Part shown: one piece after another, positions 4,817 to 44,465 of the stretch
How the letters are laid out: every line of letters begins with the position of its first letter
Position numbering within the stretch: the stretch's first letter is position 1
Sequence record: NC_028780.1
DNA: 64,000 bases
Source of the DNA: Escherichia phage slur07
Direction: 5' to 3' (one strand)
Made by a program: the position numbers and the translations under genes
Notes under the pieces: generated by a model
The model's database searches: none
Told to the model about the DNA's origin: nothing
The model's input: the letters and a program-made list of their open reading frames with translations, nothing else

Positions 4817-5608
4817 TTATACTCTTGAACCATATATTGTGCCAACTTTAGTCCAAGTTGGAGCGTTACCAGTAACAGCTTTACCAGCCGCACCGCCCGA
4901 GTGAACAGTTCCTCCAGTACCACCTTGAATATATGAAGACTTGCCAGCAGCTCCCAAATCTCCACCATTTCCTCCATAGTGAACCCCAGAAACAGTACCT
5001 TTACCAGGAGCAGAAATTGTACCAGCAGATGCTGCCGCCGCGCCACCTCCTGCTGCGCCAGCTGCGCCAAATGGACGACCGCCGCCGCCACCAAATATCA
5101 TATCCATTTGAGGGAAAGGATGGTATCTAGCGCCAGCGCCGCCACCGCCACCGCCACCAATAATACCATTATTGTTTATTCTTAAACGAGTTCCAATTCC
5201 GTTATTTATTGCAGTTCCTCCTGCTCCACCAGCAGAGTTACTTCCGCCATTTCCTCCCCGACCTAATACATGAACCCCACTATTAATATTTAAGGTAACA
5301 TATGCATTAGTTAATGAACTAGGAAAATCTAAGCAAGGTTGCCCAGCTGATGAAGAAACAATATTTCCTGTAATAGTAACAACAACAGGAGTACTACCTT
5401 GAGATTTGAGATAATTTATTAGCGTGTCTTTATTATATGAATTACTAGCGCCAATACTGTAATATACTTCTTTAGATTGCCCAGCCATTGAACTCATCCA
5501 ACCGGGAACTGAAACACGAACTGCTCTCATCGCAGCATCCATCCAACGTTGTCCAGTTTCATTCACGGCAGATTCGCCAATCCAGCCAGGAACACCTACA
5601 ATTGCCAT
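4817..5608 (-). CDS. 38: gp38 long-tail-fibre adhesin, T2/T6 type with glycine-rich motifs
   Basis: 263 aa; N-terminus MAIVGVPGWIG..AVNETGQRWM conserved with T2-type gp38; several poly-Gly tracts (GGGGGGGAG, GGGGGRPFG) separating variable segments; immediately downstream of gene 37. Confidence 0.85.
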   Translation of the reverse strand: MAIVGVPGWIGESAVNETGQRWMDAAMRAVRVSVPGWMSSMAGQSKEVYYSIGASNSYNKDTLINYLKSQGSTPVVVTITGNIVSSSAGQPCLDFPSSLTNAYVTLNINSGVHVLGRGGNGGSNSAGGAGGTAINNGIGTRLRINNNGIIGGGGGGGAGARYHPFPQMDMIFGGGGGRPFGAAGAAGGGAAAASAGTISAPGKGTVSGVHYGGNGGDLGAAGKSSYIQGGTGGTVHSGGAAGKAVTGNAPTWTKVGTIYGSRV

Positions 5609-5638
5609 TAAAAATCCTTAGAGGGCCGAAGCCCTCTT

Positions 5639-5938
5639 TTACATAAGTTTAGATTCAAGTTCTTTTACACGAGAAGAAAGTGTTTTCACAGCTTCAACCA
5701 GAAGAGCAATCTGGGATTGAGAAGAAACAGTGAGTATTTTATTACCCTTAATATCTTCAACTTCACGAACTGCTTCTGGTAAAACATCTTGCAGTGTTTG
5801 AGCCACAATACCCGCTTCAGTTTGAACAATTTCACCGCCTATATAGTCAGCTTTATCATAGATTAAACCATCAAGCTGTTCAACCTTTTCAAGAGCATTT
5901 TCAATAGGTCTGAAATTAGATTTCAAACGAATATCAGA
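5639..5938 (-). other. C-terminal intramolecular chaperone-like domain of gp37 (endosialidase-CTD type, predicted autocleavage)
   Basis: Last ~99 aa begin SDIRLKSNFRPIENALEKVEQLDGLIYDK, resembling the S-D-x-R-L-K start of self-cleaving tail-fibre chaperone domains; motif recalled from memory. Confidence 0.5.
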
Positions 5939-8900
5939 ACGAATATAAACGTTTGGGGCATTTATATTCATGTCAGAATAAGTGTCACCCGTTTGGAATC
6001 TCATTCGGCGTGCGGCATTAGTAATGATATCAAGAACTCCGTCAGCGGATTGTTTAATTCCGGTATCATTATCACCAAATGCTATACTATTTCCACCAAG
6101 TGCGTTATTGATATTAATACCAAATGAATTTGTTTGATTAATACCAGCTACAGTAGCATTATTTACTACAAAGCGGTTAGCTCCACCTGGAGTTTTTTCA
6201 AAGTAAGCAATATAGTTAGTTTCATCTGCAATTTCAATGCGGTTACCGCGAGAAGCATCACCAGCATGAAATATTCTCATATTTCTCGGGTTAGCACCAG
6301 ACTTATCAAAGTTAATACTTCCATTATTTTTGATGTTAAGGCCATTATAAAACTCTGATACCCCAGAAACGCTCATAGAGTTTGAAATAGTTACTTTACC
6401 TGAATCGATATTGATAGAAAAAGGTCTCAAGCTATTATAAGAACCGGAGGCTTTAGTTTTATCAGTATCGGTATTTTTATCTGTTAATAATATATGGAAC
6501 GTAGTACCATCATTATAAAACAGAGCAGCTGCAGAGCCACTTTCGTCGCCGTTAGATTTGTGACGGAATCCTATAGTAGTATTTGCCACAAAAGTTGCAT
6601 TTGTAGAAATATTAGAACTACCTGCATCAAAAACGCCTGAGCTATTATTAAGAAGTTTAAAAACACGACCTTTAACAGTATCTACAGGAAGCTCTTCTAC
6701 TGGTGATTGTGTAGGCCCATATAATCCATGAACTACTACTGAAGCGTTTTCTGAAGTGCTATATTCTAATGTAAGTCTATTTAAATAAGTGCCACAATTA
6801 ATATAAACATCATACTCATCGCCTGAGGTATTAATATACGCAATATCTTTAATAGCATCTGTTTCGCGTTGCCATAAAACACCATTAATTCCTTTAGGGC
6901 TGTTATTACCTGAACGCAATACAATTTCATTAATTGTTGCTTGTCTAAAAGTACCAACGTTAAATCCAGAACCACCAGTAATTTTAAATTGAACTGTAGC
7001 CACACCTTGAGGCATAGTTACTGTTGCCAATTTATACCAACCGCTATCGACAGAATAATTAATCCAGCCGGTAGTTACTTTACGGTCTAAAGTAGTGTTT
7101 AAGTTAGCAAAATTACCAGAACCGTTGGTAATATTACCGTCAGTTCCTAGTTGGGCATTTCCGACTTTAAGAGGTTTACTGATTGACACGAAATTATCGC
7201 TTATAACAAGACCGTGTCCATAAGATTGACTATAAAGCGATAAATCACTTCCAGCGCCACCAAGACCAACATACCACGATCTAATTCCAGCTTTAGAACC
7301 TTGTAAATAATTAGCAGAAGAAGATGAAGGAGAATCTAGAGTAAGCGCTGCATTACGTTCATTAATAGTTACTGGACATATCATTTTAATAGTTTTAAGA
7401 CTATTACTTACTTGTAATAATCCTGTACCAGATCCAGAATCTCCTAAATGAACATCATGCGACATTTTAACTGTGCCGGTGTTCAGTTCTATTATCAATG
7501 GTCTAAGATTACTTATACCACCTGATTCTCCAGCATCTTTAAGAGTTGGAATAATATAAAAGTTACTTTCAGAACGACGGAAAATTGCGCCGTATTCAGC
7601 ATTCCAAATTCTTAATGCGTCAGCTGTTCCACCAATTTTTACTTGGCCTGTAATAGAAGAACCACCTTGGACAAACAAACCGTTAGACATAGTAACATTG
7701 CCACCAAAAGAACCTGTACCGGAGGCACTTATATTACCAAGGCCTATGATATGGCCTGTTTCGACAGTTCCGTTAAATTTAAAGTTAACCGGACCTACTG
7801 TTTGACCTGACGCAGGATTAGTACGTTGAGCGTAGAAATAATAACCTTGTGAATCTGAAACTTCGAATACAGTTTCTCTATTACCCTTTTCAGCGTTAAA
7901 TGAATTACCCCATGCTTTAATGGTTACGGTATTTTTATTCTGACCATTACGAGTACCTGCATCCCAGTTAATGGTTTTGGTACCATCTACACCGGAAGGA
8001 GCTTTAAACGATAAAGCATTAGTATTATCATCACCATTTAAAAACAAGCCCGTACGCATAGAAATACGCTGGGTGGAGTTAATTGTTCCGTCTGCTCTAA
8101 TAGCAACGCTATTAGAACCGGTTTTAATATCTAAAATGCCAGGCTCAACAAGAAGCCCATCACCCATACTAACGGACATACGACCTGTACCACGGAAATA
8201 GTGATACATCTTAGCATTGCTGCTATATCCGATATGAGTCTGTCCATCGCCGTTATTATTACCATCAACATCGGTACGCGCAGTAAACATTGCTTGGTTA
8301 TTATTTGGGAAATCCCAAGTAGAACCGGAATCTCGACTATAACCAACCATCAATTTTTTAGTACTATTAATACCATTATTCAAAATGGTAGCAGATGAAA
8401 TACCGTTAGCCATCAGGTCATAAACGCCATCGCGGACCCATTTAATACCGGTATCGTTATCGCCAATCGCAATACCAATAGAAATTGCAGAATCTAAAGG
8501 ATAACGACCATTTGTACCACTATCAGGAAGACCTACAGAAATAGATTTACCTGCAGTAATACGTCCAGAGGTATCAAACGCCCACTGGAAAGACGAAGGT
8601 CCTACACCAGTCCACCAAGAAATTTCTTGCGGCTTACCTTTTCGACAATCAACAATTTCATGGAAAATACTTGATGCGCTTGATGCACGTAATTTACGCA
8701 AATAGTTCAATCCATTTGTAGTATTGTCGGAACCATCGGCCGGTGGGTTATAAACCCAGGTAGGTAAAGAAACAATGTCATAACCCGCGTCATTATTCGG
8801 GATAAAGGTTTTCGTGCTTATGTTAATATTTTTTGTGTTGACACGTGGCGCAGAAACTACCCCAGTAGCCGAATTAATATTACCAGAAGCAGAAATATTT

Positions 8901-9442
8901 CCATCTGTTACTGTCAAACTTCCTGTATCAACAACAAATCCACCATCTCTACGAAATGTCCAGTATTTTGAAGTTCCCGATTCATTGATATAATGAATTT
9001 TAAAACTTCCTTCGTTTACTAGCGTACCAACAGAAAAAGTCCCATCTTTATAACGCTGTTTAATTAGCGGATGGTATTCTGAAGTAGAAGTAGTTGAACT
9101 TAAATCTGTAAAAATAGGGGCTTTATTTAGGTGTTGATTTGCCCAAGCGCCATTACCTGCAGTTTTAGGTAAAAATTCAATATATTTTCCTGCATAAACA
9201 AACTGATTTCCATTGAGATTATATGTACCGTTCTGTAAATAATCTCCAGTTTGAGTGATATTTCCACTGATATTACCGCCAGTGGAAATGCTTAAATCAA
9301 TGATATTTCCTGAATCATCTTTAGTAAAAAGTGTTCTATCTTTTAAGTTTATAGCCAATTCACCTTCGGCTAATACTGAAGCAGCAGGACGTGCACCTGC
9401 GGTTTTGCTTCTTTTAAATTGTATTTGTTTTAAAGTAGCCAT
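5639..9442 (-). CDS. 37: gp37 long-tail-fibre distal subunit
   Basis: 1267 aa; N-terminus MATLKQIQFKRSKTAGARPAASVLAEGELAINLKDRTLFTKDDSGNIIDL matches T4/T2 gp37; C-terminus differs from T4 (no His-box tip). Confidence 0.92.
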   Translation of the reverse strand: MATLKQIQFKRSKTAGARPAASVLAEGELAINLKDRTLFTKDDSGNIIDLSISTGGNISGNITQTGDYLQNGTYNLNGNQFVYAGKYIEFLPKTAGNGAWANQHLNKAPIFTDLSSTTSTSEYHPLIKQRYKDGTFSVGTLVNEGSFKIHYINESGTSKYWTFRRDGGFVVDTGSLTVTDGNISASGNINSATGVVSAPRVNTKNINISTKTFIPNNDAGYDIVSLPTWVYNPPADGSDNTTNGLNYLRKLRASSASSIFHEIVDCRKGKPQEISWWTGVGPSSFQWAFDTSGRITAGKSISVGLPDSGTNGRYPLDSAISIGIAIGDNDTGIKWVRDGVYDLMANGISSATILNNGINSTKKLMVGYSRDSGSTWDFPNNNQAMFTARTDVDGNNNGDGQTHIGYSSNAKMYHYFRGTGRMSVSMGDGLLVEPGILDIKTGSNSVAIRADGTINSTQRISMRTGLFLNGDDNTNALSFKAPSGVDGTKTINWDAGTRNGQNKNTVTIKAWGNSFNAEKGNRETVFEVSDSQGYYFYAQRTNPASGQTVGPVNFKFNGTVETGHIIGLGNISASGTGSFGGNVTMSNGLFVQGGSSITGQVKIGGTADALRIWNAEYGAIFRRSESNFYIIPTLKDAGESGGISNLRPLIIELNTGTVKMSHDVHLGDSGSGTGLLQVSNSLKTIKMICPVTINERNAALTLDSPSSSSANYLQGSKAGIRSWYVGLGGAGSDLSLYSQSYGHGLVISDNFVSISKPLKVGNAQLGTDGNITNGSGNFANLNTTLDRKVTTGWINYSVDSGWYKLATVTMPQGVATVQFKITGGSGFNVGTFRQATINEIVLRSGNNSPKGINGVLWQRETDAIKDIAYINTSGDEYDVYINCGTYLNRLTLEYSTSENASVVVHGLYGPTQSPVEELPVDTVKGRVFKLLNNSSGVFDAGSSNISTNATFVANTTIGFRHKSNGDESGSAAALFYNDGTTFHILLTDKNTDTDKTKASGSYNSLRPFSINIDSGKVTISNSMSVSGVSEFYNGLNIKNNGSINFDKSGANPRNMRIFHAGDASRGNRIEIADETNYIAYFEKTPGGANRFVVNNATVAGINQTNSFGININNALGGNSIAFGDNDTGIKQSADGVLDIITNAARRMRFQTGDTYSDMNINAPNVYIRSDIRLKSNFRPIENALEKVEQLDGLIYDKADYIGGEIVQTEAGIVAQTLQDVLPEAVREVEDIKGNKILTVSSQSQIALLVEAVKTLSSRVKELESKLM

Positions 9443-37005: not shown

Positions 37006-37274
37006 TGTTTGTTGTTCACACTATTTATGAAAATGAAGGTAATACTACACGTGATTATGGTCACGTAAATCAATTTTTTAGATGCAATCCAGAATTCCGA
37101 GCTCAAAAAGACGAACGAATTTTTAAAAAATGTGTAGAGCAAGGTTTCATTTACGTCAAGCACTGGATGCAAGGAAATAAAGTTAGAACCACATATCATA
37201 GGTCTTTGACTGAGCTTAATGATGAATTGATTTATAATAGAGCTGTAAACCAAACTCTAAAGGATGAACAATGA
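37005..37274 (+). CDS. hypothetical protein
   Basis: 89-aa ORF between HAD gene and gene 30. Confidence 0.5.
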   Translation: MFVVHTIYENEGNTTRDYGHVNQFFRCNPEFRAQKDERIFKKCVEQGFIYVKHWMQGNKVRTTYHRSLTELNDELIYNRAVNQTLKDEQ

Positions 37275-38734
37275 TTCTTAAAATTCTGAACGAAATAGCA
37301 TCTATTGGTTCAACTAAGCAGAAGCAAGCAATTCTTGAAAAGAATAAAGATAATGAATTGCTTAAACGAGTATATCGTCTGACTTATTCTCGTGGGTTGC
37401 AGTATTATATCAAGAAATGGCCTAAACCTGGTATTGCTACCCAGAGTTTTGGAATGTTGACTCTTACCGATATGCTTGACTTCATTGAATTTACATTAGC
37501 TACTCGGAAATTGACTGGAAATGCGGCAATTGAGGAATTAGTAGGTTATATTACTGACGGTAAAAAAGATGATGTTGAAGTTTTGCGTCGAGTGATGATG
37601 CGAGACCTTGAATGTGGTGCTTCAGTATCTATTGCAAACAAAGTTTGGCCAGGTTTAATTCCTGAACAACCTCAAATGCTCGCAAGTTCTTATGATGAAA
37701 AAGGCATTAGTAAGAATATCAAATTTCCAGCCTTTGCACAATTAAAAGCAGATGGAGCTCGGTGTTTTGCTGAAGTTAGAGGTGATGAATTAGATGATGT
37801 CCGTCTTTTATCACGAGCTGGTAATGAATATCTAGGATTAGATCTTCTTAAGGAAGAGTTAATCAAAATGACCGCTGAAGCCCGCCAGATTCATCCAGAA
37901 GGTGTGTTAATTGATGGCGAATTGGTATACCATGAGCAAGTTAAAAAGGAGCCAGAAGGCCTAGATTTTCTTTTTGATGCTTATCCTGAAATTAGTAAAG
38001 CTAAAGAGTTTGCTGAAGTAGCTGAATCACGTACTACTTCTAATGGAATCGCTAATAAATCTTTAAAGGGAACTATTTCAGAAAAAGAAGCACAATGCAT
38101 GAAGTTTCAGGTCTGGGATTATGTTCCGTTGGTAGAAATATACGGTCTTCCTGCATTTCGTTTGAAATATGATGTACGTTTTTCTAAACTAGAACAAATG
38201 ACATCAGGCTATGATAAAGTAATTTTAATTGAAAACCAGGTAGTAAATAACCTAAATGAAGCTAAGGTAATTTATAAAAAATATATTGACCAAGGTCTTG
38301 AAGGTATTATTCTCAAAAATATCGATGGATTATGGGAAAATGCTCGTTCAAAAAATCTCTATAAATTTAAAGAAGTAATTGATGTTGATTTAAAAATTGT
38401 AGGAATTTATCCTCACCGTAAAGACCCTACTAAAGCGGGTGGATTTATTCTTGAGTCAGAGTGTGGAAAAATTAAAGTAAATGCTGGTTCAGGCTTAAAA
38501 GATAAAGCCGGCGTAAAATCGCATGAACTTGACCGTACTCGCATTATGGAAAACCAAAATTATTATATTGGAAAAATTCTAGAGTGCGAATGCAACGGTT
38601 GGTTAAAATCTGATGGCCGCACTGATTACGTTAAATTATTTCTTCCGATTGCGATTCGTTTGCGTGAAGATAAAACTAAAGCTAATACATTCGAGGATGT
38701 ATTTGGTGATTTTCATGAGGTAACTGGTTTATGA
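37271..38734 (+). CDS. 30: ATP-dependent DNA ligase (gp30)
   Basis: 487 aa, same length as T4 DNA ligase; adenylation motif KADGARC. Confidence 0.95.
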   Translation: MILKILNEIASIGSTKQKQAILEKNKDNELLKRVYRLTYSRGLQYYIKKWPKPGIATQSFGMLTLTDMLDFIEFTLATRKLTGNAAIEELVGYITDGKKDDVEVLRRVMMRDLECGASVSIANKVWPGLIPEQPQMLASSYDEKGISKNIKFPAFAQLKADGARCFAEVRGDELDDVRLLSRAGNEYLGLDLLKEELIKMTAEARQIHPEGVLIDGELVYHEQVKKEPEGLDFLFDAYPEISKAKEFAEVAESRTTSNGIANKSLKGTISEKEAQCMKFQVWDYVPLVEIYGLPAFRLKYDVRFSKLEQMTSGYDKVILIENQVVNNLNEAKVIYKKYIDQGLEGIILKNIDGLWENARSKNLYKFKEVIDVDLKIVGIYPHRKDPTKAGGFILESECGKIKVNAGSGLKDKAGVKSHELDRTRIMENQNYYIGKILECECNGWLKSDGRTDYVKLFLPIAIRLREDKTKANTFEDVFGDFHEVTGL

Positions 38735-38919
38735 AAGCTTACTTAGAAACAATTGTCGTGGCTCAAAAAGAAGGTGGAGATGTTTCTACTTCTGTATCAC
38801 AAATCATGATTGAATTTATAGATGCATATGCTTATAATAAATTCACAGAAACTTTTGATGCTTATGAAAAAGGTCCAAAGTTTGAAATATATCGTACTCT
38901 CTTACCAATAGATTATTAA
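38731..38919 (+). CDS. hypothetical protein
   Basis: 62-aa ORF overlapping gene 30 stop. Confidence 0.45.
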   Translation: MKAYLETIVVAQKEGGDVSTSVSQIMIEFIDAYAYNKFTETFDAYEKGPKFEIYRTLLPIDY

Positions 38920-38928
38920 AGGCCTTCG

Positions 38929-38952
38929 GGCCTTTAATTTTATAAATAGAAT
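38929..38952 (+). terminator. intrinsic terminator with UUCG tetraloop
   Basis: AAGGCC-TTCG-GGCCTT followed by TAATTTT. Confidence 0.55.
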
Positions 38953-38968
38953 AAACACTAGAGAGGAT

Positions 38969-41059
38969 ATGATGGAACTCATTACAGAATTATTTGACGA
39001 AGATACTACTCTTCCGATTACAAACTTAAATCCAAAGAAGAAAATACCACAAATTTTTTCAGTTCATGTTGATGATGCAATTGAACAACCAGGCTTTCGT
39101 TTATGTACCTATACATCTGGAGGTGATACTAATCGCGATTTAAAAATGGGCGATAAAATGATGCATATCGTTCCTTTTACATTAACTGCAAAGGGGTCAA
39201 TTGCTAAATTAAAGGGTCTTGGACCGAGTCCTATTAATTACATCAATTCAGTATTTACCGTAGCAATGCAAACAATGAAACAGTATAAAATTGATGCATG
39301 TATGCTACGCATTCTTAAGTCTAAAACCGCCGGTCAAGCTCGACAAATTCAACTTATTGCTGATAGACTTATCCGTAGTCGTTCAGGTGGCAGATACGTC
39401 CTTCTTAAGGAACTCTGGGATTACGATAAAAAGTATGCATATATTCTTATACATCGTAAAAACGTATCACTAGAAGACATTCCAGGAGTTCCAGAAATTA
39501 GTACTGAACTCTTTACTAAGGTTGAATCGAAGGTCGGTGATGTTTATATCAATAAAGATACTGGAGCCCAAGTAACTAAAAATGAGGCAATTGCAGCATC
39601 AATTGCACAAGAAAATGATAAACGTTCTGACCAAGCCGTAATCGTTAAAGTTAAAATTTCCCGTAGAGCAATTGCGCAAAGTCAATCATTGGAATCTTCT
39701 AGATTTGAAAGTGAATTATTCCAGAAGTATGAATCTACCGCAGCTAATTTCAATAAACCTGCTACCGCTCCTTTAATTCCCGAAGCAGAAGAAATGAAGC
39801 TTGGAATTAATTCATTAGCTTCTAAAACTAAGGCAGCAAAAATTATTGCTGAAGGAACTGCAGATGAACTTCATTATGACTATAAATTCTTTTCAAAAAG
39901 TGAGGTTAATGAAGTTTCTGAAAAAATTAAAGATGTAATTCTTAATGCGATTAAAAATGAACCAACTACTTCAATAAAATGTTTAGAGAAATACGCAGCA
40001 GCTGTTAATCAACTCTTTGAAGAATATAAAGATAATTGGCTTGATAAACATAATAAAACTCGTAAAGGGCAGCCAGATGAAGTCTGGGAAGAAATAACTA
40101 AAAATGCCTGGAATGCAGCAAAAACTAAATTCCTCAAAAGAATGATTTATAGTTTTTCTGGAATTGGTGCAGGTCCAATGATTGATATTACTATTGCCCG
40201 TGATGGTTCTAAATATACTCCATCACAAAAGCGCGGCATTAGAGAGTATTGTGGTTCAGGATATACTGACATCAATAATCTTCTTTTAGGTCGTTACAAT
40301 CCAGAACGATATGATGTAATGAGTGAAAAAGAAATTGAATCTGCTATAAATAATTTAGATTCAGCTTTTGAAAATGGTGACCGCATACCGGAAGGCATTA
40401 CAGTTTATCGTGCTCAAAGTATGACTGCTCCTATATACGAAGCGCTAGTTAAAAATAAAGTGTTCTATTTCAGAAATTTTGTATCTACTTCTTTAACTCC
40501 TATCATTTTTGGGCGTTTTGGAATTACACATGCTGGTATTGGTCTTTTAGAACCAGAAGCTCGTAATGAATTGACAGTTGATAAAAATGAAGAAGGAATA
40601 ACTATTAATCCAAACGAAATAAGAGCGTATAAAGAAAATCCTGAATACGTTAAAGTTCAAATAGGATGGGCAATTGATGGAGCTCATAAAGTTAATGTTG
40701 TATATCCAGGAAGTCTAGGAATAGCAACAGAAGCTGAAGTTATTCTACCGCGTGGATTGATGGTCAAAGTTAATAAAATAACTGATGCTTCTAATAATGA
40801 CGGAACCACGTCTAATAATACAAAACTCATTCAAGCTGAAGTTATGACCACCGAAGAACTCACCGAATCGGTAATCTATGACGGAGACCGTTTAATGGAA
40901 ACCGGCGAAGTAGTTGCAATGACAGGTGATATAGAAGATAGAGTTGACTTTGCATCATTTGTTTCATCAAATGTTAAACAGAAAGTAGAATCATCTCTTG
41001 GAATTATTGCGTCTTGCATAGATATTACAAACATGCCTTACAAGTTCGTTCAAGGATAA
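38969..41059 (+). CDS. alt: Alt ADP-ribosyltransferase (injected, modifies host RNA polymerase)
   Basis: 696 aa; N-terminus MELITELFDEDTTLPITNL matches T4 Alt; catalytic motifs YRAQS (Arg), FVSTS (STS), TEAEVILPRG (E-x-E). Confidence 0.9.
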   Translation: MMELITELFDEDTTLPITNLNPKKKIPQIFSVHVDDAIEQPGFRLCTYTSGGDTNRDLKMGDKMMHIVPFTLTAKGSIAKLKGLGPSPINYINSVFTVAMQTMKQYKIDACMLRILKSKTAGQARQIQLIADRLIRSRSGGRYVLLKELWDYDKKYAYILIHRKNVSLEDIPGVPEISTELFTKVESKVGDVYINKDTGAQVTKNEAIAASIAQENDKRSDQAVIVKVKISRRAIAQSQSLESSRFESELFQKYESTAANFNKPATAPLIPEAEEMKLGINSLASKTKAAKIIAEGTADELHYDYKFFSKSEVNEVSEKIKDVILNAIKNEPTTSIKCLEKYAAAVNQLFEEYKDNWLDKHNKTRKGQPDEVWEEITKNAWNAAKTKFLKRMIYSFSGIGAGPMIDITIARDGSKYTPSQKRGIREYCGSGYTDINNLLLGRYNPERYDVMSEKEIESAINNLDSAFENGDRIPEGITVYRAQSMTAPIYEALVKNKVFYFRNFVSTSLTPIIFGRFGITHAGIGLLEPEARNELTVDKNEEGITINPNEIRAYKENPEYVKVQIGWAIDGAHKVNVVYPGSLGIATEAEVILPRGLMVKVNKITDASNNDGTTSNNTKLIQAEVMTTEELTESVIYDGDRLMETGEVVAMTGDIEDRVDFASFVSSNVKQKVESSLGIIASCIDITNMPYKFVQG

Positions 41060-41062
41060 ATC

Positions 41063-43120
41063 ATGGAACTTATTACAGAATTATTTGACGGCGCTTCGGC
41101 GCCGGTTGTTAACTTAAATCCTAAGCATAAAATACCACAAATTTTTGCTATCCAAGCCGGCGAAGAAAGCGTGCTTCCTGGATTTAGATTTTGTACATAC
41201 ACCTCTGGTGGTGATACAAATAAAAACGTTAAGCCAGGCGATAAAATGATGCATATCGTAATGATAGGTGTCAATGAGAAACTATCATTAGTTAAGCTTA
41301 AAAACTTGGGTGGAAATCCAATTGGTGTCATTAATGCCGTTTTTGATACTGCTCTTCAAACAATGAAACAGTATAAAATCGACGCATGCCTATTCCGCGT
41401 ACTAAAGAGTAAAACAAATGGCGCAGCTCGTCAAATGCAAGTTATTGCTGACCGTTTAGTACGTACTAAAGGAGCAGGTCGATATGTTCTCTTAAAGGAA
41501 ATCTGGGACTATGATAAGAAATATGCATATATTATGGTTTACCGTAAAAATGCCAATTTAGAAGACATTCCAGGTGTACCTCCTATTTCAACTGAGTTAT
41601 TCACAAAAGTTGAATCAAAGGTTGGTGATGTTTATGTAGACGTTAAAACAGGTAATGCTGTTCCTAAAGCTGTCGCTGTTGCTGCTTCTATTGCTTTAGA
41701 AAATGATAAGCGCACTGATCAAGCTGTTATTCAGAAAACTAAAATTAGTCGTCGATTAGCAGCACAAGCTCAATATTCTACTGTTGATGCTTCACTTCAG
41801 GGTGATAGCTTCGCTGCCAAGAAATATCAAGAGTTTGAATCTAAAGTTCCGGTATATAAAGCAGAAGGACCAATGAACTCTGGCGTTATCCAGATTGGTT
41901 CAAACTTCAGCAAAGGAGCTATCGGTGGTATGAGAAGTGCTTCTCGTTTTAAATCTAATGATTATGAACTAGAAAGTTTCCGAAATCATATTGCATTGAC
42001 CCATGCACGTTTACGCGATCCATCTATCAAGCTGCAGAGCGATATAACATATCAAGGTTCTCAAGAATATTTAAAGAATAAAGAATTCTTTGATTATAAA
42101 ACTGATAAAATTTTAAGCGATCTTGCTGACATTAATATTTCTAATAGCTTTGATGTTATTAAGAAAATTATCAATGATTTAGTTAAAGATTCTAAAGCTA
42201 CATCAGATGAAAAGACAGCTATTATTCAATTTGTAATGAATGGCATTTATAAATTGATTAATGAATCTGCTGCTCAGGCATATGAATACGCAAGCACCGA
42301 AGTAACTCCAAAAGGACTGACTCAGGCTGAATCTGATGTAATTGAAGATTATTGTGCAGATTCATATGTTGAAATGAACTCGTTCCTTTTGGGTAAACCA
42401 GATTCTACCCGTGAAGAATACATGGAAAGAGCTATTAATCACATCGAGACGTTAGATTCTGCCTTTGCCAAAGGATCAGTTCTTCCTCCAGGAACTACAC
42501 TTTACCGTGGACAAGAAGTTACCTTTAAAACTTTGCGTCATAACATTGAAAACAAAATGTTCTATTTCAAGAACTTCGTATCGACATCACTTAAACCAAA
42601 TATCTTCGGTGAGCATGGTAAAAACTATATGGCTCTAGATGATTCCGGCGCAGTATTTTCTGGCGAAGGAGAAGGTTCCGTTGATGCAGAAGATTTAATG
42701 CATATGGGTAGTCATTCTACATATGCCAATGAAGATGCTGAAACTAGCGTAGGTATGGTAATTAAAGGGGCTGAGCGAATCAAAGTTATCGTTCCAGGTC
42801 ATTTATCAGGATTTCCATCAGAAGCTGAAGTTATTCTACCACGTGGAATTTTACTGAAGATTAATAAAGTAAGTACGTACTTTATGAAAGAAACTGCTTA
42901 TAACAAGTATCTAATCGAAGGTACAATCGTTCCTCCTTCTGAACAATTAGAGGAATCGGTATATGATGGCGACCATTTAATGGAAACTGGTGAAGTTCGT
43001 CCAATGGCTGGATTTAATCAATTCCTTGTAGAAGAATCAAAAGAAGAGGAAAACGAAGTTTCTCAAATCTTGGCTTCTTTGGTTAACATCAACGGAATGT
43101 CTAAAAAGTTCAAAATGTAG
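41063..43120 (+). CDS. Alt paralogue (second ADP-ribosyltransferase)
   Basis: 685 aa; same fold signature with YRGQ, FVSTS, SEAEVILPRG; conserved N-terminal third, divergent central region. Confidence 0.85.
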   Translation: MELITELFDGASAPVVNLNPKHKIPQIFAIQAGEESVLPGFRFCTYTSGGDTNKNVKPGDKMMHIVMIGVNEKLSLVKLKNLGGNPIGVINAVFDTALQTMKQYKIDACLFRVLKSKTNGAARQMQVIADRLVRTKGAGRYVLLKEIWDYDKKYAYIMVYRKNANLEDIPGVPPISTELFTKVESKVGDVYVDVKTGNAVPKAVAVAASIALENDKRTDQAVIQKTKISRRLAAQAQYSTVDASLQGDSFAAKKYQEFESKVPVYKAEGPMNSGVIQIGSNFSKGAIGGMRSASRFKSNDYELESFRNHIALTHARLRDPSIKLQSDITYQGSQEYLKNKEFFDYKTDKILSDLADINISNSFDVIKKIINDLVKDSKATSDEKTAIIQFVMNGIYKLINESAAQAYEYASTEVTPKGLTQAESDVIEDYCADSYVEMNSFLLGKPDSTREEYMERAINHIETLDSAFAKGSVLPPGTTLYRGQEVTFKTLRHNIENKMFYFKNFVSTSLKPNIFGEHGKNYMALDDSGAVFSGEGEGSVDAEDLMHMGSHSTYANEDAETSVGMVIKGAERIKVIVPGHLSGFPSEAEVILPRGILLKINKVSTYFMKETAYNKYLIEGTIVPPSEQLEESVYDGDHLMETGEVRPMAGFNQFLVEESKEEENEVSQILASLVNINGMSKKFKM

Positions 43121-43149
43121 TTTACAAGTCCCTCGTGTTGTGTTATAGT
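43120..43149 (+). promoter_or_regulatory. early promoter (repeat family 2, copy B)
   Basis: 54-bp near-identical copy of 27304-27357; -35 GTTTACA overlaps the TAG stop of the alt paralogue. Confidence 0.5.
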
Positions 43150-43180
43150 AGTCTTACTGACATAACATGAGGAACACAAA

Positions 43181-43471
43181 ATGAAATCTTCTTTACGCTT
43201 TTTAGGTCAAGAACTTGTAGTTGAAGGCGTTATTCCTGTTGATAATGCTTTTAATGAAGCAGTTTACGATGAATTTATTAAAATTTTTGGAACAGATAAA
43301 AAGTTCGGAATTTTTCCTTCTGAAAATTTTTCAAAGCCAGAACAGACTGAAAGTATTTTTCAGGGTGTAGTAACAGGTAAATTTGAGTCAGAAGCTCCGG
43401 TAAAAATTGAAGTTTATATTGAAGACAGTTTAGTTGCTTCAGTTTCTGCTTTCATTTCATTCCGTAAATAA
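43181..43471 (+). CDS. hypothetical protein
   Basis: 96-aa ORF with SD GAGGAA upstream. Confidence 0.5.
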   Translation: MKSSLRFLGQELVVEGVIPVDNAFNEAVYDEFIKIFGTDKKFGIFPSENFSKPEQTESIFQGVVTGKFESEAPVKIEVYIEDSLVASVSAFISFRK

Positions 43472-43477
43472 AAATAT

Positions 43478-43495
43478 GGGGACCGAAAGGTCCCC
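43478..43495 (-). terminator. hairpin terminator downstream of gene 54 (palindromic)
   Basis: GGGGACC-GAAA-GGTCCCC; U-rich tract on the minus-strand 3' side. Confidence 0.55.
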
Positions 43496-43499
43496 ATTG

Positions 43500-44465
43500 T
43501 TATATTGCTCCTAATATTTTACTCTGCGAATTAACAATTCCTGTCATAGTATTAATGTTTGAAATGCTTCCAGCAGTCCCTCCTAATCTACTAAGTCGTG
43601 AAAGCGAATTAGATAGTCCAGTAACACCTCCACTATTTCCGAGAACGCTTTGAATACCATTTATAGCAGCAGATTCAAGCCATTCAAGCGCAGCTTGCCT
43701 ATCAACTGCTCCAGCCTGCATCACTCTATACGCAAAAGTAACATCAAATGTAGTTATTTGGTTATCTCCATCATATGATAACTCAGGAGCGCTCACTGAT
43801 ATTGGAATGCATCCAGTGAACATCACCGCAGTATGAGGCAATCCATTACGAGAATGAAGATTAACCTGAATATCTGCCTCGACATCCTGTGGCAAAGCGC
43901 GTAATCCAGTTACTGGGTCTTGAACGGAGTTAACCCAGTCTTGCATTGCACGATAGTTACAAGCTTCTGAATCCATTCTAAATGAAATAACCAAAGGGTC
44001 TAATTCTCTCCCGGTTATGCGAATATTAGGAGAATTGTAGTTCCAGTCAGTTTCATAGGATAATCTATTCTCTGGCATTTTTACAGAGTATATCATCAAT
44101 CCAGATGAGTTATATGCCATGTTAAAGAAGTCAATTAAATATGTACCAACTGTAAATGAGCCTAATAAACTTTGAACTGTACGTTGACTCATGGCACCAA
44201 TAAGATATTTACTAACCCCTGATTTTCTTATCAGTTTTTGTGTGCCAGCAGTAATTAGCGTGGTAATTCCCTGATTAATATCACCTTGAGTCAATCCTAA
44301 CCAATCTGAATTTAGGCCCAAGTTATTATAAGAAAAGTTGCTAATTGAACTTATCAACGAAGAGCTTTTAGTTGATGGAGTTGTCGCAAAAACGCAGCTA
44401 AACATATTATTACGTTGGAAATCTGCGTTTATTGCTTGATTATTAAATTCCTCTAAAGAATACAT
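43500..44465 (-). CDS. 54: gp54 baseplate tail-tube initiator
   Basis: 321 aa matching T4 gp54 in position and sequence. Confidence 0.9.
   Translation of the reverse strand: MYSLEEFNNQAINADFQRNNMFSCVFATTPSTKSSSLISSISNFSYNNLGLNSDWLGLTQGDINQGITTLITAGTQKLIRKSGVSKYLIGAMSQRTVQSLLGSFTVGTYLIDFFNMAYNSSGLMIYSVKMPENRLSYETDWNYNSPNIRITGRELDPLVISFRMDSEACNYRAMQDWVNSVQDPVTGLRALPQDVEADIQVNLHSRNGLPHTAVMFTGCIPISVSAPELSYDGDNQITTFDVTFAYRVMQAGAVDRQAALEWLESAAINGIQSVLGNSGGVTGLSNSLSRLSRLGGTAGSISNINTMTGIVNSQSKILGAI

Follow-up and report, generated by a model that had tools for sequence, protein, structure and literature searches.

Two intact Alt-family ADP-ribosyltransferase genes in tandem in Escherichia phage slur07: a standard pair of T2-like phages with probably different targets

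Why does a T4-like phage carry two genes for the ADP-ribosyltransferase Alt, one directly behind the other, and do the two products act on the same host proteins? The question is raised by a 64,000-nucleotide stretch of the genome of Escherichia phage slur07 (NC_028780.1; the whole stretch is referred to here as the window), in which two alt-like genes, denoted A1 and A2, lie head to tail on the + strand. An earlier note, made from the letters of the DNA alone, had described the pair and suggested two injected ADP-ribosyltransferases with different targets. The pair is confirmed and the suggestion is largely supported. What the note described is the ordinary alt / alt.-2 (Alt2) arrangement of T2-like phages, for which annotation exists; the note had missed that this arrangement is common and annotated, with T4 as the deleted exception. 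The interpretation that we favour, and consider likely, is a standard Tequatrovirus pair of two old, intact paralogues that would be transcribed from one late promoter, would both be packaged, processed and injected, and would act on different host targets.

The open reading frame (ORF) list and the sequence confirm two intact alt-like ORFs of 696 and 685 amino acids (aa), head to tail and 3 nt apart. The mechanical ORF of the first gene spans 38969 to 41059 and gives the 696 aa. The real start of alt is probably the second ATG at 38972, because a GAGG Shine-Dalgarno sequence (38963–38966) is 5 nt from this codon and just 2 nt from 38969. The first gene, alt (A1, 38972–41059, + strand), then encodes 695 aa beginning MELITE. 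This start is found at the annotated coordinates in all four genomes compared (RB32, T2, teqsoen and GiZh) and in T4 Alt; Bas37 is annotated from the first ATG. Residue numbers of A1 given here count from the second ATG. The second gene, alt.-2 or Alt2 (A2, 41063–43120, + strand), encodes 685 aa. Each paralogue has a mass of ~77 kDa and begins with a conserved head of 240 aa, which a helical linker connects to an R-S-E ADP-ribosyltransferase (ART) domain at the C-terminus. Pfam PF03496 (ADPrib_exo_Tox) matches A1 with 129 bits and A2 with 71.1 bits, against a cut-off of 23.4, and PHROG 802 (phrog_802, ‘Alt-like RNA polymerase ADP-ribosyltransferase’) covers both proteins end to end (1.6e-272 and 2e-256). 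No NCBIfam model was found for either. The N-terminal third had been described as nearly identical between the two copies; this is overstated, as the heads (aa 1–240) are 68% identical in protein and roughly 68–72% in DNA, and the longest exact DNA stretch common to the two genes is 23 nt. The pattern of a conserved head followed by a strongly divergent centre is nevertheless correct. The bodies (aa 241–628) are 28% identical and the whole proteins 41%.

Both copies keep the R / STS / E-x-E signature, as the earlier note had stated, and the second copy has lost no catalytic residue. In A1 (40409–40738, + strand) the signature consists of R480 in VYRAQ (40409–40411), S505-T506-S507 (40484–40492) and E587-A-E589 (40730–40738). 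The equivalents in A2 (42506–42829, + strand) are R482 in LYRGQ (42506–42508), S507-T508-S509 (42581–42589) and E587-A-E589 (42821–42829). An alignment of 21 family sequences shows no variation at the catalytic R, the two S and the two E; the middle T falls in the 90%-or-more class. The A1 segments TVYR and EAEV align to TVYR and EYEV of CdtA. Within the R-S-E clan, E-x-E marks arginine specificity, in contrast to Q-x-E. The loop preceding E-x-E reads PGSLGIAT in A1, PGHLSGFPS in A2 and PGGSLAPSN in T4. In our own reading this would be the ARTT loop, which contributes to substrate choice in the C3/iota-type toxins.

An AlphaFold2 model of A2 (mean predicted local distance difference test, pLDDT, 74.8) matches Vis, Certhrax, CDTa, C3bot, VIP2 and iota-like toxins with E values of 3e-7 to 1e-4, a probability of 1.0 and a target-normalised template modelling (TM) score of ~0.6; A2 is thus predicted to adopt the ART fold. 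In sequence searches of the PDB, A2 had no matches and A1 weak matches to CdtA and iota Ia alone, and no solved Alt structure was among the results for either protein. When the A2 ART domain was compared with 1.84 billion representatives, 113 matches were obtained, nearly all with the Alt-family architecture (600–710 aa); among these 113, none outside that architecture was above 49% identity. The complete motifs, the PF03496 scores, the A2 model and the purifying selection described below support the assignment of both proteins to the Alt family of ADP-ribosyltransferases. The R-S-E toxins (C3, iota Ia / CDTa, VIP2, Certhrax) and Vibrio Vis have the ART fold, the catalytic R, S-T-S and E-x-E in common with the Alt proteins, but sequence identity of the clostridial/Bacillus toxins and Vis to them is 14–19%. 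In the alignment the Alt proteins, unlike the R-S-E toxins, possess a long segment between S-T-S and the pre-E-x-E loop, with little conservation among family members. The fusion partners of the Alt ART domain are the phage-specific 240-aa head and helical linker, and not a toxin-delivery domain. ModA and ModB of T4 are small, early-expressed and unpackaged, and neither A1 nor A2 has that architecture. Like Alt, ModA and ModB carry out NAD-dependent modification of host proteins during takeover, according to the literature.

Neither gene is interrupted, and strong purifying selection acts on both. Across the window, RB32, T2, teqsoen and GiZh, the ratio of non-synonymous to synonymous divergence (dN/dS) is 0.03–0.06 for alt and 0.02–0.05 for Alt2, at a synonymous divergence (dS) of ~0.07–0.16. 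Synonymous sites are saturated between the paralogues, and the duplication is therefore old. A pseudogene or an assembly duplication was ruled out, since both ORFs remain open in all genomes compared, dN/dS is ~0.03 and 59% of the residues differ. Recent gene conversion between the heads was also ruled out, by the shortness of the longest exact common stretch and by saturated dS in the heads.

How common is the pair? A megablast search with 38700–43500 returned 542 phage records; in 377 of these the match extends over at least 80% of the region with an identity of about 95% or higher. Among the 377 are T2, RB32, RB27, RB33, GiZh and several BASEL phages; in many of these records two genes carry the annotation ‘Alt-like RNA polymerase ADP-ribosyltransferase’. 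Two copies are annotated in RB32, T2, GiZh, teqsoen, Pinarejo and Bas37, and the Alt2 body is present at 95% identity or more in ~400 records. The second gene is named alt.-2 in RB32, and the layout in T2 is the same; in MZ501089 (phage KarlGJung, which is Bas37) the two genes are labelled ‘ADP-ribosyltransferase Alt’ and ‘Alt2’ (bas37_0032). RB32 alt.-2, the second copy of T2 and Bas37 Alt2 are direct orthologues of A2, with 685 aa and the same 3-nt gap after alt. Bas37 Alt and Alt2 are respectively 98.9% and 98.8% identical to A1 and A2. In T2, RB32 and teqsoen the region is 96.7–97.5% identical in DNA, with no difference of substance from the window, and the closest record, Escherichia phage vB_Eco_CP, is 98.0% identical over the region. 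We found no functional study of the second copy in the literature under the names Alt2, Alt-like or alt.-2.

T4 differs by a deletion. Comparison with T4 alt and its downstream ORFs places A1 at the T4 alt locus and identifies the downstream ORFs as remnants of A2; the small T4 ORF alt.-1 corresponds to A2 residues 1–56 (95% identity) and alt.-2 to residues 62–116 (98%). The deletion is 1,699 bp long and ends at a 9-nt near-repeat, CTAAAGAGT / CTAAAAAGT. On the + strand of the window its left end, CTAAAGAGT, is at 41402–41410 and its right end, CTAAAAAGT, at 43101–43109, the T4 sequence joining the 9-mer to the near-repeat. The T4-type junction is found in 91 phage records. The GenBank note to T4 describes the alt.-1/alt.-2 ORFs as a decayed duplication of alt, and alt duplications in several T4-like phages were mentioned by Nolan et al. 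2006.

The first position of the pair varies in a different way. T4 Alt (NP_049811), an NAD+:arginine mono-ADP-ribosyltransferase that is injected with the DNA and whose classical ‘alteration’ is the ADP-ribosylation of the RNA polymerase alpha subunit, occupies the same locus as A1, between alt.1 and alt.-3. The two proteins have the same MELITE, LTE cleavage context and R / STS / E-x-E, and A2 has the same architecture and motifs. Identity of A1 to T4 Alt is 70% overall, 99% in the head and 51% in the body (aa 241–628), so A1 represents a distinct allele; between the bodies of A2 and T4 Alt identity is 25%. The A1 body (39704–40891) is of the Bas37/T2 type, found in 315 records at 95% identity or more. 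Among the other Alt body types, identity to it is ~49–51% (T4), ~81% (Bp7-like) and ~47% (HX01-like), with heads at ~99%. The first slot of the locus is polymorphic, its catalytic module apparently exchanged by mosaic replacement. Alt2, in the second slot, is nearly monomorphic and occurs beside Alt proteins of either body type, as in Pinarejo, where its partner is T4-type.

In several genomes the two genes are replaced by a single hybrid gene of 684–686 aa between alt.1 and alt.-3, with an Alt head that passes into an Alt2 body. From the BLAST results, single-piece, single-place matches alone were accepted as hybrid genomes (PST, ECML-134 and SCS4). Carriers include Yersinia phage PST (L010, 1501–3561), Escherichia phage ECML-134 (L011, 1501–3561) and the metagenome contigs L003, L004 and L008. 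The hybrid genes are annotated plainly as ‘alt’ and correspond to 38972–43120 of the window. The switch from Alt to Alt2 is single and clean in each, at Alt2 residue ~53, 109, 157, 191 or 223. Five distinct switch points imply at least five independent unequal crossovers within the 68%-identical heads, each of which deleted exactly one gene length. PF26846 (Tevenvirinae_ADPRT) and PF03496 are both precomputed for the hybrid genes as well as for the 99%-identical cluster P0001. We also note that the fold of the head resembles N-terminal parts of large uncharacterised phage proteins in BFVD, some of which carry zeta-toxin, deaminase or ParB/Srx domains. The TM scores of 0.4–0.55 are modest, and the resemblance hints that the head may be a reusable carrier module.

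Do the two genes have separate roles? The HIDEN-SEQ preprint (10.1101/2025.11.20.689424) describes saturating transposon libraries in Bas37. The values quoted here are taken from its Extended Data Table 7 and cover the sheets for the reference library, the K-12 control, CFE331, Mokosh type I, CFT073, CFE299 and CFE303. In the reference library the TA-site figures are 164/179 for Alt (bas37_0033), which is called ‘Non-essential’, and 116/164 for Alt2 (bas37_0032), which is called ‘Intermediate’; mean counts in the K-12 control are 203.6 and 44.5, respectively (10.1101/2025.11.20.689424). Under Mokosh type I the log2 fold change (log2FC) is −7.74 for Alt and +1.32 for Alt2, both with an adjusted p shown as 0.00000 (10.1101/2025.11.20.689424). 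On the clinical isolate CFE331 it is −1.56 for Alt (adjusted p shown as 0.00000) and +0.12, not significant, for Alt2, and on CFT073, CFE299 and CFE303 both genes are not significant (10.1101/2025.11.20.689424). The authors treat Alt as an anti-Mokosh factor and find T4 Alt and Bas37 Alt not to be interchangeable; Alt2 appears in their tables alone and is not discussed (10.1101/2025.11.20.689424). The opposite phenotypes under Mokosh type I indicate that the paralogues are not redundant and that Alt2 cannot replace Alt. Distinct targets for Alt and Alt2 would fit several lines: the divergent bodies, the different pre-E-x-E loops and the opposite phenotypes in Bas37.

The regulatory signals suggest that the two genes are expressed together. 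A T4-type late promoter box, an exact match to TATAAATA, is located at 38941–38948 (+ strand), 23 nt 5′ of the alt start codon, and late transcription of alt is consistent with a protein that is built into the prohead. Immediately 5′ of alt, a terminator-like hairpin read by eye, AGGCC-TTCG-GGCCT followed by TTAATTTT (38920–38941, + strand), would close the upstream unit. A consensus terminator scan did not flag this hairpin; a conserved terminator 5′ of alt was reported by Nolan et al. 2006. At the A1–A2 junction the stop codon TAA (41057–41059) is followed by ‘atc’ and by the ATG at 41063. The Shine-Dalgarno sequence for A2, AAGGA (41052–41056, + strand), sits within the last A1 codons, 6 nt before this ATG. 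A consensus scan gave no + strand promoter- or terminator-like sites within ~260 nt 5′ of the Alt2 start, the nearest + strand promoter-like match being at 40770–40798, and an exact-match scan gave no TATAAATA box in the 3-nt gap or the last 250 nt of A1. With the ribosome-binding site of Alt2 inside the end of alt and no intervening + strand promoter or terminator over that distance, the simplest reading is that alt and Alt2 are co-transcribed, possibly with coupled translation. A second exact TATAAATA occurs at 40345–40352 (+ strand) inside alt, ~710 nt 5′ of the Alt2 start. This box may be a late promoter within the gene or have arisen by chance; across the window 15 matches to TATAAATA were observed and 9 expected.

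Packaging can be judged by comparison with T4 Alt, a prohead-core protein present in ~40 copies per head (PMC5694885, PMC9026906). T4 Alt is cut by gp21 at ITE-6 and at LTE-619, with removal of 63 C-terminal residues, and LTE-619 has been mapped by mass spectrometry (PMC5694885). The cleavage positions are experimentally mapped in T4 Alt alone, and the sites in A1 and A2 are assigned by motif conservation. The N-terminal propeptide MELITE of A1 (38972–38989, + strand), with the gp21 prohead-protease motif ITE-6, is identical to T4 Alt residues 1–6. A2 has the identical MELITE (41063–41080, + strand), and E6 is invariant in the family alignment. Near the C-terminus A1 carries the cleavage motif LTE (aa 630–632) followed by a 63-aa propeptide (40859–41056, + strand), in an EELTE/SVIYDGD context identical to that of the T4 LTE-619 site. 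The putative motif in A2, LEE (aa 629–631) followed by a 54-aa tail (42947–43117, + strand), aligns with the Alt LTE, and E631 is invariant in the family. Predicted mature A1 would comprise residues 7–632 (70.1 kDa) and predicted mature A2 residues 7–631 (69.2 kDa). In the A2 model pLDDT is below 50 from residue 629 to the end, as expected of a removable tail. From these features we infer, with good motivation, that Alt2 is packaged, processed and injected; MELITE, the L-x-E site and the common late promoter point to injection of both copies.

Alt2 might instead be active but unpackaged, being made late and acting in the producing cell on host or phage proteins. Such a role is compatible with a late promoter as the sole upstream promoter signal and with the baseline fitness cost in K-12 of Alt2 insertion mutants, which Alt mutants do not show; virion proteomic evidence for Alt2 was not found in the literature. 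However, Alt2 has kept MELITE and the L-x-E site, as used in head processing of T4 Alt, its head is 68% identical to that of packaged Alt, and a prohead-core protein would itself have to be made late. We consider an unpackaged Alt2 unlikely.

A further possibility is that Alt2 serves mainly as a non-catalytic internal head protein, occupying core or packaging sites, influencing DNA packing or acting as a decoy, with its transferase activity secondary. T4 alt− mutants package more DNA, so internal proteins do affect head contents, and a T4 head contains ~40 copies of Alt. Insertions in Alt2 are also enriched when Alt is essential, as would be expected from competition for limited head sites. 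Against this, the family has retained R, S-T-S and E-x-E throughout, and dN/dS in the ART body is ~0.03; such conservation is hard to account for without catalysis, and we regard a mainly structural Alt2 as quite improbable. Redundancy, with two copies providing dosage or backup through more enzyme for the same targets, is very doubtful: architecture, catalytic motifs and operon are the same, and natural phages live with either body (T4-type deletions keep the Alt body and hybrids the Alt2 body), but the bodies and pre-E-x-E loops differ, the saturated synonymous sites show that the copies have been kept apart for long, and intact Bas37 Alt2 fails to compensate the loss of Alt under Mokosh type I, where the two genes move in opposite directions.

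We therefore return to two paralogues with different host targets. In this pathway both proteins would enter the prohead core by means of the common head and the MELITE propeptide. The protease gp21 would trim both at ITE-6 and at the L-x-E site ~55–63 residues from the C-terminus. Once ejected along with the DNA, the two would mono-ADP-ribosylate arginines, using NAD+, each on a different set of host proteins. The Bas37/T2-type alt body is required in Bas37 for escape from Mokosh type I, and the role of Alt2 would be separate. Several observations weigh against this interpretation. The second copy is dispensable in nature, as the 91 records with the T4-type deletion demonstrate. Ectopic T4 Alt rescued Mokosh sensitivity and ectopic Bas37 Alt did not (10.1101/2025.11.20.689424); the genetics of the Bas37 allele are thus not simple. 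The ‘Intermediate’ call for Alt2 could arise from toxic truncated products or library effects and not from loss of function. No virion proteomics of a two-copy phage was found in the literature, so that packaging and ejection are assigned to Alt2 by its conserved motifs.

More tentatively, alt and Alt2 may form an effector cassette with two slots, whose products carry one delivery module and compete for a fixed number of head sites. A trade-off would result, in which Alt2 would help on some hosts but would dilute the anti-Mokosh Alt. The enrichment of Alt2 insertions under Mokosh type I fits such competition, although this is speculation. The three natural states of the locus, namely Alt with Alt2, Alt alone (the T4 deletion) and the Alt2 body alone (the hybrids), would fit a two-slot cassette, and the occurrence of the head fold on other phage proteins with zeta-toxin, deaminase or ParB/Srx domains would fit a common delivery module. 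We judge the cassette to be possible rather than probable.

The surroundings of the pair are those of a Tequatrovirus (T4/T2-like) genome, in a direction reversed relative to the T4 map, as identified from the ORF list and the T4 annotation. On the + strand the order is 30.2, 30.1, gene 30, alt.1, the 696-aa ORF, the 685-aa ORF and alt.-3; genes 54, 48 and 29 come after alt.-3 on the minus strand. The order gene 30, alt.1, alt, then alt.-3 and gene 54 beyond the pair matches the annotation of T4, RB32 and T2. DNA ligase gene 30 is at 37271–38734 (+ strand). It is followed by alt.1 (38731–38919, + strand), a small conserved gene of 62 aa between gene 30 and alt that is matched by Pfam PF24647 (Phage_blade, 7.5e-29) and is positioned as T4 alt.1. 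Downstream of the pair, an early-promoter-like site, (G)TTTACA, 17 nt, TG-TATAGT (43121–43149, + strand; 10/12 matches in the promoter scan, with an extended −10), stands 5′ of alt.-3. The alt.-3 gene itself (43181–43471, + strand) encodes 96 aa with DUF5498 (PF17602, 3e-63) and is placed as in T4 and RB32. In the Bas37 transposon tables its orthologue bas37_0031 is depleted on the uropathogenic Escherichia coli (UPEC) strain CFT073 (log2FC −2.70, adjusted p 0.02) and not elsewhere among the conditions read. A bidirectional terminator hairpin found by the scan (43476–43497, both strands), with a 9-bp stem containing 6 GC pairs, separates alt.-3 from gene 54. Scans of the window for tRNA genes and Rfam families gave no matches. 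Far from the locus, minus-strand ORFs of 263 and 1267 aa at 4817–9442 lie beside other tail-fibre-sized ORFs. By the sizes of the T2/T4 tail-fibre genes we take them to resemble a T2-type gp38 adhesin and gp37, which, if so, would agree with a T2/RB32-like alt locus.

T4, the model for phage ADP-ribosylation, is without the second enzyme, which is why nearly all of the biochemistry is that of a single Alt allele. Two Alt enzymes are injected, or at least encoded, by most T4-like coliphages, T2 and many therapy candidates among them. The existing transposon data suggest that, against a defence system, the effects of Alt and Alt2 differ and are in part opposed. The targets of Alt2 would extend a known theme and would not open a new one.

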